The notes under the pieces were generated by a model, which had not been told where the DNA came from, made no database searches, and saw nothing but the letters and a program-made list of their open reading frames with translations. A stretch of 32,000 nt of DNA from Ectothiorhodospira marina. GTDB lineage: Bacteria > Pseudomonadota > Gammaproteobacteria > Ectothiorhodospirales > Ectothiorhodospiraceae. A program made the translations under genes and the position numbers. This document shows, piece by piece, positions 23,755 through 32,000 of the stretch; the first letter of the stretch is position 1, and every line of letters begins with the position of its first letter. Location: positions 220,956 through 252,955 of the forward strand of contig NZ_FOAA01000002.1 of the NCBI RefSeq assembly GCF_900109495.1, given 5' to 3'.

Positions 23755-25140
23755 TCAGGTATCCAGGGGGCTTCTCACGGCAAGGCCTCCACGGTTCAAC
23801 ACGTGGGTGTAAATCTGGGTGGTGGACACATCGCTGTGCCCCAGCAGTTCCTGAACGGTTCTGATGTCATAACCCTGCTCCAGCAAATGGGTCGCAAAAC
23901 TGTGCCGCAAGGTGTGGCAACTGGCTTTCTTGTGAATGCCCGTCTTTCTAGCGGCTCCCTTGACGGACTTCTGCACAGCGGTTTCGTGCAGGTGGTGGCG
24001 CCGGGCTTTACCCGAACGCGGGTCTACCGAAAGACGACCGCTGGGAAACACAAACTGCCAGCGCCATTCGCGAGGCGCGTTGGGATACTTCCGCGCCAGC
24101 GCATCAGGCAGGAGCGTTTCCCCCAGTCCCTGCTCAACATCCCTGACGTGCAGTGCACGCACGGATTCCAGGTGCTCCGTCAGCGGGCCAACCAGCGATT
24201 CCGGCAAGGGCACGATTCGGTCCTTGTTCCCCTTGCCAGATCTCACCACGATCAATCCCCGGTCAAATTCCACGTCCTGTATGCGAAGCCGCAGGCATTC
24301 CATCAGTCTCATGCCGGTCCCGTAGAGCAGAGAGGCGACCAGGGAGGGAACCCCAGTCAGTTCGTCGAGCATGCGCCGCACTTCTTCCCTGGAGAGCACC
24401 GTGGGCAATCGCCTGGGGCGTTTGGCCCTGGAAAAGGGGCCAATATCGCCAAGGGGTTGTTCAAGTACCTTACTGAACAGGAAGGCCAGCGCGTTCAAGG
24501 CTTGCTTCTGAGTACTAATGGAGACATTGCGTGTGACCGCAAGATATTGGAGGAAATCAGCCACCTGCGCAGCTCCCAGACTGGAAGGCGCCTGTCCATC
24601 GCAATGGTGGATGAATCTGCAGATCCAGCCCATATAGGATTTTTCCGTCCTGATGGACATATTGCGAGTTCGCATCACCGCAATCAGCTTTTCGAAAACA
24701 GGCTGATGGGCAAGTATCAAGGGCGCAAAGCGTTTGTCACCCACATGCCGTGCAAACTCCGCCGGTGTGAGAGGCACATACTCCCGGGCCAAGGTCGCGT
24801 GCTGTGGTTCGAGCGCCTTGGCCGAAGCGCGCCAGTAGTCCCAGTCAAACGTTTCACTCCATTCCGTGTTTACCAACTTATACAGAATCTGTATAGCGTC
24901 GATGACCTGGAGGTACTGCCAAGGCTTCAGGTTAGGGGATTCGCCCACCTTGAGCAGATAGCCCGAGACGTCGTCAGGGGTGAGGGAGGCCAGTCGTCGG
25001 CGGGGGAAAGCACGGATGAACTGCTCCGCCCGAATCCGGTACCAGCGCACCGATTCCGGCTTGATTCCTTTTTGAATCAGATGTTTGCTAAAGCGGGACC
25101 AGAAAATGCGCTCTTTGTCCGTAAGAGGAGGGTTGGCCAT
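23755..25140 (-). CDS. intI: Integron integrase IntI (tyrosine recombinase) with about 145-aa N-terminal extension
   Basis: Carries the IntI-specific insertion [43 protein letters not shown]. Catalytic motifs are also present: [47 protein letters not shown]. Confidence 0.92.
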
Positions 25141-25269: not shown

Positions 25270-25289
25270 TGTCGAATATACTGTTATAT
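25270..25289 (+). other. Candidate attI core (GTTATAT crossover box)
   Basis: This is the only GTT-R-like box between intI (25140) and the first cassette ATG (25305): GTTATAT at 25283-25289. The attI arms are not defined. Confidence 0.3.
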
Positions 25290-25304: not shown

Positions 25305-26171
25305 ATGAAGTACGAACAACGGATAGTGGCCTTTATTGATATATTGGGTTTTAAAGCACTTCTGAATGAGACCACTGACAAAAAAGGGAATGATGATGAG
25401 AAGGCAATTGATGCAGTGGTCTCAGCCTATGAGGCAATTAGAGATATTTGGGATTTAGATAAAAAATCCGATTATCTCGACACAAAATCATCAGACACAA
25501 AGAAAGTTTCCATTTTTTCTGACTGCCTAGTTGTATCTTTCGAGATAAACCAGCCTAGTGAAGTGTTTTTCACTTTGTTAGAAATAAAATGGCTGATAAT
25601 GAGACTTATCGCACGCAAGATATTGTGTAGAGGAGCGGTATCTCTTGGAAAATTTATCCACACTGACAATTACCTGTTTGGGCCAGCGTTAGTAGAGGCA
25701 TATACGCTAGAATCAAAGGCTGCCATGTATCCGCGAGTCATTTTAGATCACACTGTGATTGAAGCTGGAGCTAAAAACAGAGGCCTTGATCATAGCTTTA
25801 GTCAAGAGCATGAGTATGTGCAGTCACTACTTGAGCTGGACTCCGATGGCATGTACTACATAGACTACTTTTTCAAAGCCCAATCAGAACTGGATGACCC
25901 TGAATATGATTTCCCCGAATATATAGAAAATTTGGCTGAAATAATTCGTAAAGGGCTTATGGGGTCAAGCCACCATAGTAAGGCTGACATAAGAGTTAAG
26001 TATTCTTGGATGAGAGAGCGCTATAACAAGATGGTTGATATTGTCACAAACAAGAGTGCCATCCAAAGACTTAAACAATCTGGAGAGTACGATCTTTCTG
26101 AATTTTATAGTCAACTGAAGAAGATCAGCCCAAACAAATATAACAAGGCATTGCAGCGGACGAGCCGCTGA
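25305..26171 (+). CDS. Cassette 1: class III nucleotidyl-cyclase-like (palm domain) protein with unknown C-terminal half
   Basis: Three segments are collinear with the cyclase-homology domain. VAFIDILGF aligns with F-x-D-I-x-GF. IFSDCLVVSF aligns with I-G-D-x-x-M-x-x-F. CRGAVSLGKFIHTDNYLFGPALVEAYTLES aligns with R-I-G-I-H-x-G....LFGDTVNxAxRxES. An AGGAAG RBS lies 6 nt upstream. Confidence 0.55.
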   Translation: MKYEQRIVAFIDILGFKALLNETTDKKGNDDEKAIDAVVSAYEAIRDIWDLDKKSDYLDTKSSDTKKVSIFSDCLVVSFEINQPSEVFFTLLEIKWLIMRLIARKILCRGAVSLGKFIHTDNYLFGPALVEAYTLESKAAMYPRVILDHTVIEAGAKNRGLDHSFSQEHEYVQSLLELDSDGMYYIDYFFKAQSELDDPEYDFPEYIENLAEIIRKGLMGSSHHSKADIRVKYSWMRERYNKMVDIVTNKSAIQRLKQSGEYDLSEFYSQLKKISPNKYNKALQRTSR

Positions 26172-26185
26172 ATGCGGCGTTAATG
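26138..26185 (+). other. attC site 1 (very short, overlaps 3' end of cassette-1 CDS)
   Basis: R'' is ATATAAC at 26138-26144 and R' is GTTAATG at 26179-26185. GCATT-G-CAGCGG pairs with CCGCTGAATGC, leaving one extrahelical G. Confidence 0.6.
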
Positions 26186-26369
26186 GCCTTGGCCCTGTCA
26201 GTGGTATCGTTGGGTTAGAGTTTGATCGAATTTGAATCTATTTATGAAAAACTGGCAAACGTATCTTCGAAGAAAAATAATTTTTCGACCTCGTTTATAG
26301 CTTGAGATTGGTAATTCTCGGTCAAAATATTAAAGTTATATCGGAATAGTTTGGGTGATAGATAGGCGA

Positions 26370-28040
26370 ATGGAAAGAAATGATGAATCACATTTTAATA
26401 TCTATTTTTGCGGAAGCGCTATTGAATTTCCAGATGTGAAGCGCCCGGCGATAATTTTTTCGCCAGTGAATGATAGCTGGAATGATTTTAGATATAAGTG
26501 TAGCTACCGATATCTAATTTATTTTGGAGACGGACGAAGGGAAATAGAAGGCCGCGTATTTCTCGGATTTACGTCAGGTAACGAAAATATCGAAGATAGT
26601 GGTCAGCTATCTAATCAAGTCGAGGTAGTCGAGGCGAGTGAACTACCTGATTTTTTTACACTACAGGGAGGCATGAAGGATTATCGTTACTTTGTGAATG
26701 AGCATGGAACTGAAGATGCAAACCGCCTTCTCCTGGCTTTCAACGATTTGGTTGCCTGTCGGCGTTTTCCAAAACGAGCGAAACTCGTCGATGTTGCAGT
26801 AAAAACGGAAGTATTTAGTTTAGCTTTAATGAGGGACTCTGATCGTTTTTTTGCGTTTCACAATGCGGACACGATTCTTGATGGTTTGGAGGAAGAAAGC
26901 TTTTCTAGAATTTCGACTGAGTTTTCACTTTCATATGATCTTGCAGGGTTCCCAGAAAATCACAATTTATATTTGAATTTTGATACGAACAGCATTCTCC
27001 CGAAAAGAATCAGCGTGCTAATTGGGCGAAATGGCCTAGGGAAAAGCCAGGCTCTCCACACAATAGTAAGGTCTTTGGTTAAAGGAGATCTGCGTTTCTC
27101 TGATCGTGACCACGGTAGACCAATGGTGAGCCGCTTGCTTGCCATTGCTACGCCGGGAGAAACAGCCAATACTTTTCCTCCTGAGCGCCAAAATAAAAGA
27201 ATTAAGTATCGACGATTGATACTCAATAGGAGTGCGAGAGCCAAGGCCTCAAGGGGGTTCGGTGATCTCTGCGTTCAGCTTGCTCGGTCCGAGGAACTGA
27301 TTGGCAATAACGACCGTTGGAGACTATTTGAAGATAGCATTCAGCTTTTTTCTAATATTAAGAATGTCGTCATACCTTTGAGCAAAGATATTTCAGTTGC
27401 GGCTGATCATGTTTTGAGAGTCAACGGTAAACGTTATGTGCCGCTTTTGAAGCTAAACCATGGGGGAGAGCAGGCTAAATTAGAAGTACAAGGTGCTGTC
27501 GTAAGCAACGCTAACCCAATGATGTACATAGAGGATGATATTTTTCCTCTCAGCAGTGGACAACTTTCATTTATTAAGTTTATTGTCCAAGCTTGTTTGT
27601 TTGTTGAAAATGGAACCCTCGTTCTACTAGATGAACCAGAAACACACCTCCACCCAAACTTTATATCGGAGTTTGTCAGGATCCTTGATCGGTTATTAAA
27701 ATCTACTGGATCTGTTGCCGTCATTGCCACACACTCTGCCTATTTCGTTCGAGAAGTCCCTAGAAACCAAGTTCTGGTATTTAAAGGCGACGGCGATGGT
27801 CGGGTAAGCATTCAAAATCCTAGACTGAAGACATTTGGTGCAGATGTTGGGACGATCTCTTATTTCGTTTTTGAAGATGAAATTACTAATGGGTTAGTTG
27901 AAGATATACTAGATCGATTCCCACAAAATCCTGAAGCTAGAGATTCGTTATTAAAAGAACTAGAAGCAGAGTTGTCCGCTGACGTTGTTATGTACCTGCG
28001 CAGGAAGCTGAACATGGAGGAAAATAATGAAGAGAATTGA
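26370..28040 (+). CDS. Cassette 2 gene A: ABC/SMC-type (AAA_15/21-like) ATPase, PtuA-like, with unknown N-terminal domain
   Basis: Walker A is GRNGLGKS (27024-27047), the ABC signature is LSSGQ (27549-27563), Walker B is LVLLDE followed by PETHLHP (27618-27656), and the H-loop is IATHS. The first roughly 210 aa carry no motif I recognise. The alternative GTG start at 26355 would add 5 aa. Confidence 0.8.
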   Translation: MERNDESHFNIYFCGSAIEFPDVKRPAIIFSPVNDSWNDFRYKCSYRYLIYFGDGRREIEGRVFLGFTSGNENIEDSGQLSNQVEVVEASELPDFFTLQGGMKDYRYFVNEHGTEDANRLLLAFNDLVACRRFPKRAKLVDVAVKTEVFSLALMRDSDRFFAFHNADTILDGLEEESFSRISTEFSLSYDLAGFPENHNLYLNFDTNSILPKRISVLIGRNGLGKSQALHTIVRSLVKGDLRFSDRDHGRPMVSRLLAIATPGETANTFPPERQNKRIKYRRLILNRSARAKASRGFGDLCVQLARSEELIGNNDRWRLFEDSIQLFSNIKNVVIPLSKDISVAADHVLRVNGKRYVPLLKLNHGGEQAKLEVQGAVVSNANPMMYIEDDIFPLSSGQLSFIKFIVQACLFVENGTLVLLDEPETHLHPNFISEFVRILDRLLKSTGSVAVIATHSAYFVREVPRNQVLVFKGDGDGRVSIQNPRLKTFGADVGTISYFVFEDEITNGLVEDILDRFPQNPEARDSLLKELEAELSADVVMYLRRKLNMEENNEEN

Positions 28041-28881
28041 TCCTCCTGCTATTGATGACATTAAAGAGTTACAGCTTCTAGCTAATAACCACGGTCTCGG
28101 GAGTTATCCGGGCCTGATGAATGAATATATCCGATTTCGTAGTCAATACAATGTCTATAGTAAAAGCGGTGGAAACCCTTGGAATATAGCTCCATTGCCC
28201 ATTAGTGACGATTTAAAGAAGGCATTAAGAACTCATTATGGCTCTCCTCCGCAAGGTCGGCTGCAATTTCTCAAAAAGTATCGTCGAGGTTTATCGCCAA
28301 CAATTTGCCCAATGTGTGGGGGGTTCGGTAATGGTACTTTGGATCACTATCTTCCCAAAGAGGACTACCCAGAGTACTCATTTTTTTCTAAAAATCTTAT
28401 CCCAGCTTGTAATTGTAACTCGTTAAGAGGGACTACTGTTAAAGGGGTAGCATCTCCTGCAAGAGTAATTCATCCATATTACGATGATTTTCTGCAAGAC
28501 CGATTGTATCAAGCTGTGTTTCAAGGTGAGTTTTCTGCACCTAGTATTTCTATTGAAATTATTGATAAAAGCCATCCTGAATTTGATATTTTAAAATTTC
28601 ATCTCGACGAAGTAATTAAAAATGAAGCAACTCAAGGTTGGTTTGAGAAATATTGGAGCGATTTAAGTCAGCGTCCCCATGATAAGCTGGAGTTGGTTCT
28701 CCCATTGCCCGCGCAAGATGTGAGCGGAGCTGATTTGAAAGTTGCTCTTGAAAGATATAGAAATCATATGGATAAAGATCATGATACGCCAAATAATTGG
28801 CTTTCTATATTCTATACTGGATTGATTAAGGATCATAATCGCTTAGACAAGTTAGCAGCGGTCATAAACAGCAAGAGATGA
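28027..28881 (+). CDS. Cassette 2 gene B: HNH endonuclease, PtuB-like
   Basis: HNH core CPMCGG...LDHYLPKEDYPEY...NLIPACNCNSLRG at 28306-28425. The ATG overlaps the end of the ATPase gene by 14 nt. Confidence 0.8.
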   Translation: MKRIDPPAIDDIKELQLLANNHGLGSYPGLMNEYIRFRSQYNVYSKSGGNPWNIAPLPISDDLKKALRTHYGSPPQGRLQFLKKYRRGLSPTICPMCGGFGNGTLDHYLPKEDYPEYSFFSKNLIPACNCNSLRGTTVKGVASPARVIHPYYDDFLQDRLYQAVFQGEFSAPSISIEIIDKSHPEFDILKFHLDEVIKNEATQGWFEKYWSDLSQRPHDKLELVLPLPAQDVSGADLKVALERYRNHMDKDHDTPNNWLSIFYTGLIKDHNRLDKLAAVINSKR

Positions 28882-28927
28882 TATATGTGCGCCTAGCTTG
28901 GAATAACGAATTTCATGGCAACCATGC

Positions 28928-28985
28928 CATTAACAAGGAGCGTAAGGCGGACGGCTTTCAGCCGCCGCTTCGCTCAGCGTTGGAC
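28928..28985 (+). other. attC site 2
   Basis: R'' is CATTAAC at 28928-28934 and R' is GTTGGAC at 28979-28985. GAGCGTAAGGCGGACGGC pairs with GCCGCCGCTTCGCTC, with bulged bases. Confidence 0.7.
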
Positions 28986-29003: not shown

Positions 29004-29624
29004 GTGGGGCTCTCAGTTCCGTTGCAGGCAGACAACAAATCCGTCTCGCCAAATTATCGCGTAATCGACTGGCATGACGCCATGCGGTCCGACGATTGGG
29101 CTACGATGGTCGCCATTTTTAGAGATCGGCTGCATGGCAGATTCTTGGAGCCAATCGAACACATAGAGGCAGATAGGAGGATAGGGGGGTTCGCAGGTTT
29201 CTCCATAATGGCACTTGATTGCCTGCTTGTTGAGACTTTAAATCAGTTCTATCACGGTCTCGATGAGACACCTAAGGATCACCAAAGACAGTTTTGGAAG
29301 TTTTTTAGTGGTAGCGAGCATTTCAAGTCTAACTTCACAAGGAAGGTCTCGGACATTTTTTATAGTCATGTGCGCTGCGGATTACTGCACCAAGCCCAAA
29401 CAAAGAAAGGCACATTGATTAGGGCCGACCAAGATAGGATGATAAGCCCGGCTCCTGGGGGATTGGTCAATGGGATAATCGTTGATCGCGTCCGTTTCCA
29501 TGATGCATTAAAGCAGGAAATAGCGACATACATCCGAACGCTGGAATCGGGAGAGGAAGGTGGTGCGGACCTCCGCAATAACTTCATCACAAAAATGCAG
29601 TACATCTGTGGAGGGCAGGCCTGA
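29004..29624 (+). CDS. Cassette 3: hypothetical protein with R-x4-H (HEPN-like) motif
   Basis: 206-aa ORF with a GTG start 6 nt after GAGG. It is predicted helical and carries RCGLLH at 29373-29390. I do not recognise the family. Confidence 0.5.
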   Translation: MGLSVPLQADNKSVSPNYRVIDWHDAMRSDDWATMVAIFRDRLHGRFLEPIEHIEADRRIGGFAGFSIMALDCLLVETLNQFYHGLDETPKDHQRQFWKFFSGSEHFKSNFTRKVSDIFYSHVRCGLLHQAQTKKGTLIRADQDRMISPAPGGLVNGIIVDRVRFHDALKQEIATYIRTLESGEEGGADLRNNFITKMQYICGGQA

Positions 29625-30664: not shown

Positions 30665-30749
30665 ACATAACTAGTGCATTAAATTCGTTCCGGCCCGATG
30701 GGCCTCCACCGGACGCCCTAGTCGGGCGCCGTTTATGCAGGCGTTAAAT
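30665..30749 (+). other. attC site 5
   Basis: R'' is ACATAAC at 30665-30671 and R' is GTTAAAT at 30743-30749. TGCAT-T-AAA pairs with TTTATGCA. It overlaps the yoeB stop codon. Confidence 0.6.
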
Positions 30750-31003
30750 CAGTAGTGATACCGGAGCTGGGCGATAAGCAAAGCGTCATCCGTGACTTTG
30801 TAAACTATTCGGTGTTCTTCGTTGATCCGGCGGGACCAGTACCCGGCGAGGCTGTGTTTTAGGGGCTCTGGTTTGCCAACACCTTCGAACGGTTCTCGCT
30901 TGGTCTCTTTGATCAGCTTGTTGATTCGGTTAAGAATCTTTTTGTCGGTTTTCTGCCAGTACAGATAGTCTTCCCAGGCGTTCTCGGAGAAGATGAGTTT
31001 CAT
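30749..31003 (-). CDS. yoeB: Cassette 6: YoeB/Txe-family mRNA interferase toxin
   Basis: 84 aa reading MKLIFSENAWEDYLYWQKTDKK...GKPEPLKHSLAGYWSRRINEEHRIVY...RYHY, a canonical YoeB sequence. Confidence 0.92.
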   Translation of the reverse strand: MKLIFSENAWEDYLYWQKTDKKILNRINKLIKETKREPFEGVGKPEPLKHSLAGYWSRRINEEHRIVYKVTDDALLIAQLRYHY

Positions 31004-31251
31004 TCAAGAAGTTCCTTTTCTTGACCACCGCCTTGCTCCAGCTCGGCAACGGATTCCAGCAAACGCCGTGCGTTTTTTGGTGCGCGCAGAAGGTATGCAG
31101 TTTCTTGCAGCGCCTCGTAGTCCTCGAGGGAGATCATTACCACTGACTGCGACTTGCTCCGGGTGATGATCACAGGGGAATGGTCTTCACAGACCTGCTC
31201 CATGGTTTTTGCTAGATTGGTTCTAGCGGCTGTGTAGCTAATGGCATCCAT
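31000..31251 (-). CDS. yefM: Cassette 6: YefM/Phd-family antitoxin
   Basis: 83 aa reading MDAISYTAARTNLAKTMEQVCEDHSPVIITR...MISLEDYEALQETAYLLRAPKNARRLLES. The stop and the yoeB start overlap (4 nt). I chose the start at the internal ATG of ORF 31000-31341. Confidence 0.9.
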   Translation of the reverse strand: MDAISYTAARTNLAKTMEQVCEDHSPVIITRSKSQSVVMISLEDYEALQETAYLLRAPKNARRLLESVAELEQGGGQEKELLE

Positions 31252-31420: not shown

Positions 31421-31693
31421 ATGAAGCAAATAAACTGGAATGCCGAAAAGAACCAGCAGCTGATGAGCGAACGCGGAGTCTCCTTCGAAGACGTTCTGTT
31501 TGCTCTCCAGTCTGGTGGTTTGCTTGATGATGGACCTCATTCCAACAGGGAGAAGTATCCAAGCCAGCGTATATTCGTGGTTCGGATAGATGATTATGCC
31601 TGGCTGGTGCCGTACGTTGAAAATGATAGGGAGTTCTTTCTCAAGACGATTGTTCCCAGTCGCAAGGCCACCAAGAAATTTTTAGGAGGATAA
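31421..31693 (+). CDS. brnT: Cassette 7: BrnT-family (DUF497) ribonuclease toxin
   Basis: 90 aa. INWNAEKNQQLMSERGVSFEDV fits the W-x-x-x-K-x-x-x-N-x-x-x-(H/R)-G-V-S-F-E pattern of BrnT toxins, and the C-terminus has SRKATKK. Confidence 0.75.
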   Translation: MKQINWNAEKNQQLMSERGVSFEDVLFALQSGGLLDDGPHSNREKYPSQRIFVVRIDDYAWLVPYVENDREFFLKTIVPSRKATKKFLGG

Positions 31694-31694
31694 C

Positions 31695-32000
31695 ATGGCG
31701 AAAACCAAATTGGATCCTGAAGAGCAAGAATTGCTTGAGGCATACGAATCCGGAAAGTTTGAGTCGGACTTGGATGCTGGTCGTCGCGAGTACCTAGCCA
31801 AGATGGCCGAAGAAACATTCAAGAAAGACAAAAGGATCAATATACGTATCTCTAGCCGGGATCTGGAGGCACTTCAGCGTCGGGCTCTGGAGGAAGGGCT
31901 TCCTTATCAGTCTCTCGTGTCCAGTGTCCTGCATAAGTATGTCTCTGGTGGCCTGAAGGACATTTCTGCTAACAAGTCAGGCCAGCGGACACGCTATTAA
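31695..32000 (+). CDS. brnA: Cassette 7: BrnA/CopG-type antitoxin
   Basis: 101 aa with the ribbon-helix-helix-like segment KRINIRISSRDLEALQRRALEEGLPYQSLVSSVLHKYV. It starts 2 nt after the brnT stop. The stop codon occupies the last 3 nt of the window. Confidence 0.75.
   Translation: MAKTKLDPEEQELLEAYESGKFESDLDAGRREYLAKMAEETFKKDKRINIRISSRDLEALQRRALEEGLPYQSLVSSVLHKYVSGGLKDISANKSGQRTRY
31967..32000 (+). other. attC site 7 (5' half only, truncated by window end)
   Basis: TGCTAAC-AAG-TCAGGCCAGCGG has the same R''-spacer-L'' layout (TAAC AAG) as attC 1 and 2. The partner half lies outside the window. Confidence 0.4.

Follow-up and report, generated by a model that had tools for sequence, protein, structure and literature searches.

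We identified a two-gene cassette in an integron of Ectothiorhodospira marina that encodes an ABC-type ATPase and an HNH nuclease, and that we consider likely to serve in anti-phage defence. The cassette lies within a stretch of 32,000 nucleotides (nt) of this environmental purple sulfur bacterium (NCBI RefSeq assembly GCF_900109495.1, contig NZ_FOAA01000002.1, positions 220,956 to 252,955 of the forward strand), which we refer to as the window and whose numbering is used throughout. On the evidence of its sequence, the segment from 26180 to 28979 is a genuine integron cassette, predicted to be mobile through the integron integrase IntI and located in a sedentary chromosomal integron. Its two products belong to a single protein family that joins the PADLOC candidate system PDC-M01, one Septu 'PtuA' model (PDLC00282), and the Ea59 and Ea31 proteins of lambda-type phages. 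An original prediction, made from the letters alone, had proposed a Septu-like ATPase and HNH nuclease pair carried as one 2.8-kilobase (kb) cassette, with an unrecognised N-terminal domain and its own leader. Features of the cassette boundaries are as follows.

26180-28979, plus strand: two-gene cassette, 2800 nt, second in the array, delimited by R''/R' complementarity
26138-26185, plus strand: attC site of cassette 1, 48 nt, with R' box GTTAATG across the junction and crossover after G26179
28928-28985, plus strand: attC site of the two-gene cassette, 58 nt, with R'' box CATTAAC at 28928-28934 and crossover after G28979
25283 (attI), 26179, 28979, 29700, 30212, 30743, and 31377: junction G positions, from the R''/R' rule

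The junctions were placed by the circular-cassette rule, according to which the R'' box of a cassette's own attC is the reverse complement of G followed by the first six bases of that cassette. This complementarity is exact in all seven cassettes for which it was scored. The two-gene cassette opens with TTAATG, and its R'' box, CATTAAC, is the exact reverse complement of GTTAATG. When folded as the bottom strand, its attC forms an L''/L' stem with bulged bases (-20 kcal/mol, z -4.0), and that of cassette 1 forms a hairpin in which a single base is extrahelical (-13.4 kcal/mol, z -2.2).

A copy of the cassette that is 93% identical across window positions 26164-28981 is present in a metagenome contig (L008). 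The copy carries the same attC but is flanked by other neighbours, both the upstream attC and the downstream cassette being different from those of the window. Homology stops at the downstream junction, between G and TT; upstream it continues for 16 nt into the attC before the cassette, a stretch in which both attC sites are alike. Because the R''/R' rule holds in all seven cassettes and the 93%-identical copy lies between different neighbours, the limits can be set at 26180-28979. The predicted cassette and its length therefore stand, while the proposed ends (26186-28985) are shifted by 6 nt. The occurrence of the copy in another setting reads as a direct trace of transfer in cassette form, and cassette status is established for these two copies, to which the statement is confined. 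The two-gene cassette is also unusually large, as had been suspected: its 2800 nt compare with 512-896 nt in neighbouring cassettes, a three- to five-fold difference. We also observed that the attC upstream of the metagenomic copy (L008, positions 1-45) closely resembles the attC of cassette 5 of the window (30690-30750), and the copy may come from a related integron with its cassettes in another order.

The cassette contains a leader followed by two co-oriented genes, the features of which are given below.

26180-26354, plus strand: leader, 175 nt, AT-rich, with two weak sigma-70-like matches (26252-26281 and 26302-26331)
26355-28040, plus strand: ABC ATPase gene of the Ea59/PDC-M01A type, 561 amino acids (aa), GTG start, assigned with PADLOC, hhalign, and Pfam
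26355-26900, plus strand: predicted family-specific N-terminal domain, approximately residues 1-182, from the AlphaFold2 model and conserved columns
27024-27047, plus strand: Walker A motif GRNGLGKS, residues 224-231, with lysine K230, invariant in 82 sequences
27549-27563, plus strand: ABC signature LSSGQ, residues 399-403
27618-27656, plus strand: Walker B motif LVLLDE (residues 422-427) and D-loop PETHLHP (residues 428-434)
27726-27737, plus strand: H-loop ATHS, residues 458-461
28016-28040, plus strand: coupling region, with GGAGG at 28016-28020, the HNH ATG at 28027, and the ATPase stop at 28038-28040, a 14-nt overlap
28027-28881, plus strand: HNH nuclease gene of the Ea31/PDC-M01B type, 284 aa
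28306-28419, plus strand: HNH core, with C94, C97, D106-H107, N123, C128, and C130

Both proteins have intact catalytic motifs. Every motif quoted for a full ABC/SMC-type ATPase set and for an HNH core was found, the latter comprising CPMCGG (residues 94-99), DHYLPK (106-111), and NLIPACNCN (123-131). The key motif residues are mostly invariant among 82 ATPase homologues and 70 HNH homologues, and the others (for example Q403 and T459 of the ATPase, and N131 of the HNH protein) are conserved in at least 90% of them. Walker A does lie deep within the protein, behind an N-terminal extension, and Pfam models AAA_21 and AAA_15 match only the C-terminal part of the ATPase. The GTG start is supported by the ATG that stands at the same position in the 93%-identical relative. 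The HNH protein is 100% identical to a protein recorded at NCBI under E. marina.

The ATPase and HNH genes are probably produced together. The 14-nt overlap of their ends (28027-28040) was confirmed from the open reading frames, and GGAGG is situated 6 nt before the HNH ATG, an arrangement that suggests translational coupling. An overlap of the same length is found in L008 and at four further loci (L012 and L014-L016), and shorter overlaps occur in another homologue (L005, 4 nt), in a Vibrio cholerae pair (1 nt), and in the lambda-type phage HK630 (4 nt). In the window and in homologues from eight other contexts the ATPase gene precedes the HNH gene, adjacent to it and on one strand.

The leader is AT-rich, as the original prediction had stated: its GC content is 35%, while the cassette as a whole reaches 41% and the host 63%. 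The stated length of 184 nt needs correction, since 175 nt precede the GTG start and 190 nt precede the following ATG (26370). The leader has diverged faster than the genes, being 85% identical to L008 versus 93-95% for the coding parts. The two promoter-like matches each agree with the consensus at 9 of 12 positions and lie within an AT-rich stretch, and an Rfam scan of the leader and the rest of the array gave nothing credible. A promoter inside the leader is therefore possible. Because the pair occupies the second position in the array, the integron promoter probably drives its transcription.

Assignment to PDC-M01 was made by scanning against the PADLOC models directly, outside the system-calling rules of that program. 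The ATPase matches PDC-M01A (PDLC04242, E 2.6e-61, residues 27-521), and the HNH protein matches PDC-M01B (PDLC04270, E 1e-39, residues 36-276). More than ten PtuA1 models also match the ATPase, the best being PDLC00282 (E 5.5e-45). A search of phage genomes with tblastn pointed to lambdoid phages. In phage HK630 (NC_019723.1, 2033-4497), a gene for an Ea59/AAA family ATPase is followed, with a 4-nt overlap, by an HNH endonuclease gene at the position of lambda ea31, and the pair is located in the b region adjoining int and attP. By hhalign, the ATPase family aligns with Ea59 at 99.9% probability (E 6.9e-32) over window residues 38-543, the N-terminal domain included, and the HNH family aligns with Ea31 at 99.6% probability (E 9.6e-24) over 270 columns. 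Ea59 itself matches PDC-M01A (PDLC04235, E 8e-202) and PtuA1 (PDLC00282, E 8.8e-185), and Ea31 matches PDC-M01B (E 5.8e-113). Lambda-type ea59/ea31 are the sequences behind models PDLC04235 and PDLC00282. Since Ea59 and Ea31 match these models and also align with the families of the window pair, we regard PDC-M01, the 'PtuA' model PDLC00282 with its N-terminal domain, and lambda-type Ea59/Ea31 as one family to which the window pair belongs. The proposal of a previously undescribed Septu-like subtype is accordingly not supported: the pair is PADLOC PDC-M01 and is homologous over its full length to lambda-type Ea59/Ea31.

The lambda genes are non-essential and dispensable for lytic growth, and ea59 is annotated as an 'ATP-dependent endonuclease' (PMC10695390). 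As cited in PMC5241400, work from 1982 described an endonuclease that is specified by lambda and depends on single-stranded DNA. Among the papers searched, we found none that links ea59/ea31 to Septu or to phage defence. The 1982 enzyme is presumably the product of ea31/ea59.

The relationship of the PDC-M01/Ea59-Ea31 family to PtuA/PtuB of Septu appears to be real but remote, that of a distant branch. The Septu-like ATPase and HNH architecture that had been proposed is upheld by the matches to several PADLOC PtuA models and by structure comparison of the HNH protein. Its AlphaFold2 model (pLDDT 95) was searched against the PDB with Foldseek, and the top four matches are all PtuB chains of retron Ec78/Eco7 (9vhl_F, 9u9y_H, 9nnb_J, and 9l7p_H), with nothing credible after them. 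Among NCBIfam models the only recurrent match in the HNH family is TIGR02646 ('retron system putative HNH endonuclease'), found in 21 of 70 members. In Bacillus genomes, calls of PDC-M01 duplicate those of Septu (PMC11811056), which also links the two. A search of PDB sequences with the HNH profile gave a weak HNH match (4h9d, E 0.013), plus spurious S100 matches. We also considered a homing endonuclease and rejected it, as the HNH gene is always paired with the ATPase gene and the C-terminal helical domain is conserved.

The N-terminal domain of the ATPase is where novelty is left, since its fold and function are without assignment. In an AlphaFold2 model built from 29 sequences (mean pLDDT 85) the domain consists of a five-stranded beta-sheet (residues 15-103) followed by a helical bundle (107-175). 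Two further strands at 189-208 are taken as the first hairpin of the ABC head, on the basis of this model. Conserved residues of the domain are WNDF (42-45), Y110-R111, N130-D131, R160, and N170-A171. A Pfam scan of the domain, both as a single sequence and in 29 family members, gave nothing recurrent, and Foldseek with the domain model matched neither PDB entries (best E 0.5) nor BFVD viral models (best E 0.3). The domain had been thought unrecognised. However, residues 1-216 alone match PADLOC PDC-M01A (E 5.5e-11) and PtuA1 PDLC00282 (E 1.1e-6, residues 39-179), so that the domain is already contained in catalogued models.

A profile search with the N-terminal domain against 1.84 billion cluster representatives returned 348 matches. 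Of the 150 matches listed, almost all are either proteins of 526-591 aa in which the domain is N-terminal or sequences shorter than this; five of 705-812 aa among those listed (P0070, P0223, P0228, P0232, and P0320) carry a further N-terminal extension. Seven more relatives bearing the domain, six of them among the weakest matches listed, have PDC-M01A as their best match in every case. Because the matches are few and the domain is placed N-terminally in proteins of 526-591 aa, it is specific to the Ea59-type ATPase family and not a module shared with other effectors. This extension, of 150-280 aa, precedes the Ea59-type domain in a few family members, among them two further long homologues (P0080 and P0098) for which precomputed Pfam matches show PF13271.

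The N-terminal domain is most likely a sensing or regulatory part, by analogy, because the N-terminal extension of retron PtuA contacts the partner that controls it (PMC12819146). A bolder proposal is that the domain is a new fold that senses infection, and that the Ea59-type pairs form a separate branch of ATPase-HNH immunity, with a trigger and a substrate distinct from those of canonical Septu, which has been captured repeatedly by integrons, CRISPR-associated transposons, plasmids, and lambdoid phages. We put this forward tentatively, as a speculation that is more probably wrong than right. If it is true, the long-unexplained ea59-ea31 genes of lambda would constitute a system for exclusion or for defence against phages, and the E. 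marina cassette would be a compact and naturally portable version of it.

Relatives of the pair occur in a variety of mobile and defensive settings. In V. cholerae and related assemblies (L001-L003, 8001-10513) a 45%-identical pair is cargo in a type I-F3 CRISPR-associated transposon, where it lies between tnsA-tnsB-tnsC, together with a helix-turn-helix gene and a VspR-like gene, and tniQ-cas8/5-cas7-cas6. Other relatives adjoin a SymE toxin and HATPase_c_3 proteins, one adjoins a ScoMcrA-like protein and a 1715-aa helicase, one adjoins a pair consisting of an AAA protein and an S8 protease, and others are present on rhizobial megaplasmids. The gene neighbourhoods of six distant homologues (L005 and L012-L016) resemble ordinary defence islands or transposon cargo. 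The integron is thus one of several vehicles for the Ea59-Ea31-type pair. The company kept by the homologues, as judged from neighbouring genes, supports a role in defence or in conflict between elements.

A function is proposed here by analogy with characterised relatives. The pair would probably defend against phage as a nuclease under ATPase control, in the manner of PtuAB, and would travel on a cassette movable by IntI. The ATPase and HNH proteins would be co-produced through translational coupling, and the ABC ATPase would oligomerise and keep its HNH partner inactive within the complex. An infection cue would then activate the complex, with the N-terminal domain probably reading or relaying that cue; candidates are a phage protein, DNA ends or single-stranded DNA, and a drop in ATP. 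Once released, the HNH nuclease may cut DNA or tRNA and so halt phage replication, possibly at a cost to the cell.

Several observations weigh against this proposal. The cut-offs of the curated NCBIfam models for PtuA, PtuB, and TIGR02646 are not reached by the window pair: NF041760, the PtuA equivalog for the retron Ec78 protein, scores 41.9 bits on the ATPase versus a cut-off of 500, and TIGR02646 scores 12.1 bits on the HNH protein versus a cut-off of 52. The structural matches of the HNH protein to PtuB have weak Foldseek scores (best E 0.055, probability up to 0.91, TM-score 0.36-0.45, with 0.45 target-normalised). The lambda pair is phage-borne and non-essential, and so may serve purposes besides host defence. 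PDC-M01 is described as an unpublished PADLOC candidate (PMC11811056). Finally, our literature search found no phage-challenge test of any PDC-M01/Ea59-Ea31 member.

Among other explanations, the one that fares best is an addiction or stabilisation module in the manner of a toxin-antitoxin pair, in which an HNH toxin restrained by the ATPase would mainly stabilise the cassette array or the carrier element and would not stop phages. Sedentary integrons are rich in toxin-antitoxin systems, two of which (YoeB/YefM and a BrnT/BrnA-like pair) are present in this array, and homologues are carried by a CRISPR-associated transposon, rhizobial plasmids, and lambdoid phages. In addition, the PtuAB of a retron, when free, is toxic to cells (PMC12819146). 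We nevertheless judge this explanation unlikely, as 2.5 kb of coding sequence is large for stabilisation, nothing points to a labile antitoxin, and homologues are also found within chromosomal defence islands. The two roles are not mutually exclusive in any case, and many abortive-infection systems behave as toxin-antitoxin pairs.

A second explanation, which we rate as rather improbable, is that the pair is a weapon of its carrier, whether phage, transposon, plasmid, or integron, and either attacks competing elements and superinfecting phages or processes DNA for the life cycle of the carrier. The full-length homology to the lambda-type pair of the b region, beside int and attP, is in keeping with such a role, as is the presence of the pair as cargo in a CRISPR-associated transposon and on rhizobial plasmids. 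However, the lambda genes are dispensable for lytic growth, and we know of no role for the pair in the life cycle of any element. This explanation also overlaps largely with defence, since the exclusion of a superinfecting phage is itself defence. Very improbable is an accessory of restriction-modification or DNA repair with a housekeeping or restriction-helper role, either of the 'restriction system-associated AAA ATPase' type or acting on DNA ends like Rad50/SbcC or OLD: the best curated NCBIfam match of the ATPase is TIGR04435 (colinear over residues 398-540), one homologue is beside a ScoMcrA-like protein and a large helicase, and lambda ea59 bears its endonuclease annotation, but the 82.6 bits of that match are far below the cut-off of 300, the cassette moves on its own without a methylase, restriction, or Mre11/SbcD-type gene, and the neighbours of homologues vary from locus to locus, unlike those of a fixed partnership. 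The Rad50/SbcC-type repair version was rejected, as the ATPase is partnered by an HNH protein and not by one of the Mre11/SbcD type.

The remainder of the array provides the setting of the cassette, and its features are listed below.

23755-25140, minus strand: integron integrase gene intI, an open reading frame of 461 aa that matches TIGR02249 with 460.5 bits versus a cut-off of 265 over residues 150-460
25277-25289, plus strand: attI crossover region, with box GTTATAT and G at 25283; cassette 1 starts at 25284
30749-31251, minus strand: YoeB/YefM toxin-antitoxin cassette, on the strand opposite to the array
31421-32000, plus strand: cassette with a BrnT/DUF4258-like toxin and a CopG/BrnA-like antitoxin

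The GC content of the window is approximately 62% up to roughly 25 kb and 40-51% beyond, with intI located at the boundary. IntI also matches the Pfam families Phage_integrase and Phage_int_SAM_4. About 147 residues of the protein precede the canonical match, which starts at residue 150, and a weaker second SAM-like match (Phage_int_SAM_1) covers residues 16-67; the extension may be either a duplicated N-terminal domain or a sign that the true start codon is further downstream. At least seven cassettes follow intI. In cassette 1 the R'' box, at 26138, reads ATATAAC and is thereby the reverse complement of GTTATAT. In addition to the toxin-antitoxin pairs the array contains genes for a glyoxalase and a GFA-family protein. 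Such content, both toxin-antitoxin cassettes included, is usual for a sedentary chromosomal integron.

Two neighbours of the two-gene cassette encode proteins without family matches. Cassette 1 (25305-26171, plus strand) encodes a 288-aa protein with no match in Pfam, NCBIfam, or PADLOC, the N-terminus of which (VAFIDILGFKALL) is reminiscent of the metal-binding strand in folds of the nucleotidyl cyclase type, an impression gained from the sequence. The 206-aa product of cassette 3 (29004-29624, plus strand) contains RCGLLH, an R-x4-H motif of the HEPN-ribonuclease kind. All three cassettes closest to attI may be of the defence type.

The cassette is a clear and well-bounded case of a large two-gene module of the defence type travelling as an integron cassette, in an environmental purple sulfur bacterium. 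Three entries usually treated apart, PDC-M01, one Septu 'PtuA' model, and lambda ea59-ea31, are now joined. The current picture of integrons and of Septu is left unchanged, and what most deserves to be pursued is the connection with lambda ea59-ea31, together with the N-terminal domain, the fold of which has no assignment. As a 2.8-kb unit with natural boundaries, the cassette could be cloned for a first test of the family and of the role of this domain.

In overall design the window pair resembles stand-alone Septu, which is likewise a two-gene operon for an ABC-type ATPase and an HNH nuclease, and PtuA1 models match the C-terminal half of the window ATPase. In Septu EcB88, the Walker A lysine of PtuA is K43 and the HNH residues of PtuB are H75/N91; defence requires both the ATPase and the HNH activities, and tRNA-Tyr is cut in the variable loop on infection (PMC13096335). 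The window HNH protein has the same 16-residue spacing between histidine and asparagine (H107/N123 versus H75/N91). In contrast, the Walker A lysine of the window ATPase is K230 rather than K43, a difference of approximately 180 extra N-terminal residues that are modelled as a separate folded domain. Stand-alone PtuAB is described in PMC12819146 as nicking DNA, with ATP lowering the nicking.

The closest solved structure for the HNH partner is PtuAB of retron Ec78/Eco7, and weak sequence matches in the PDB connect it with the ATPase as well. However, the cassette contains neither a reverse transcriptase nor a non-coding RNA, and the HNH protein is longer, with approximately 284 aa versus approximately 205-216 aa in the solved retron PtuB chains. 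The N-terminal extension of retron PtuA, which binds a partner (PMC12819146), is short, with Walker A at approximately residue 90-100, whereas the domain of the window ATPase is predicted to be a folded unit of approximately 180 aa and has no structural match to the retron entries.

Lambda-type Ea59/Ea31 share with the window pair the same gene order and overlapping ends, and the sequence DGWNDYSF of Ea59 aligns with DSWNDFRY in the N-terminal domain of the window ATPase. The sizes are comparable (525 and 296 aa in HK630, 561 and 284 aa in the window). However, the identity is only about 22-26%, and the carrier is a temperate phage in one case and an integron cassette in the other.

Defence systems in integron cassettes have been reported by Darracq 2025 and Kieffer 2025, as summarised in PMC13434031. 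As in the BRiCs of mobile integrons and the systems of the V. cholerae superintegron, a defence-type cassette here lies next to intI, and its expression would depend on position in the array, as PMC13434031 and bioRxiv 10.1101/2024.07.02.601719 describe for integron defence systems. The reported cassette systems tend to be small, and the recovery of cassettes drops with size (bioRxiv 10.64898/2026.03.17.712381). The cassette of E. marina differs from them in its 2.8 kb, in its two genes, and in its location in the chromosomal integron of a purple sulfur bacterium.

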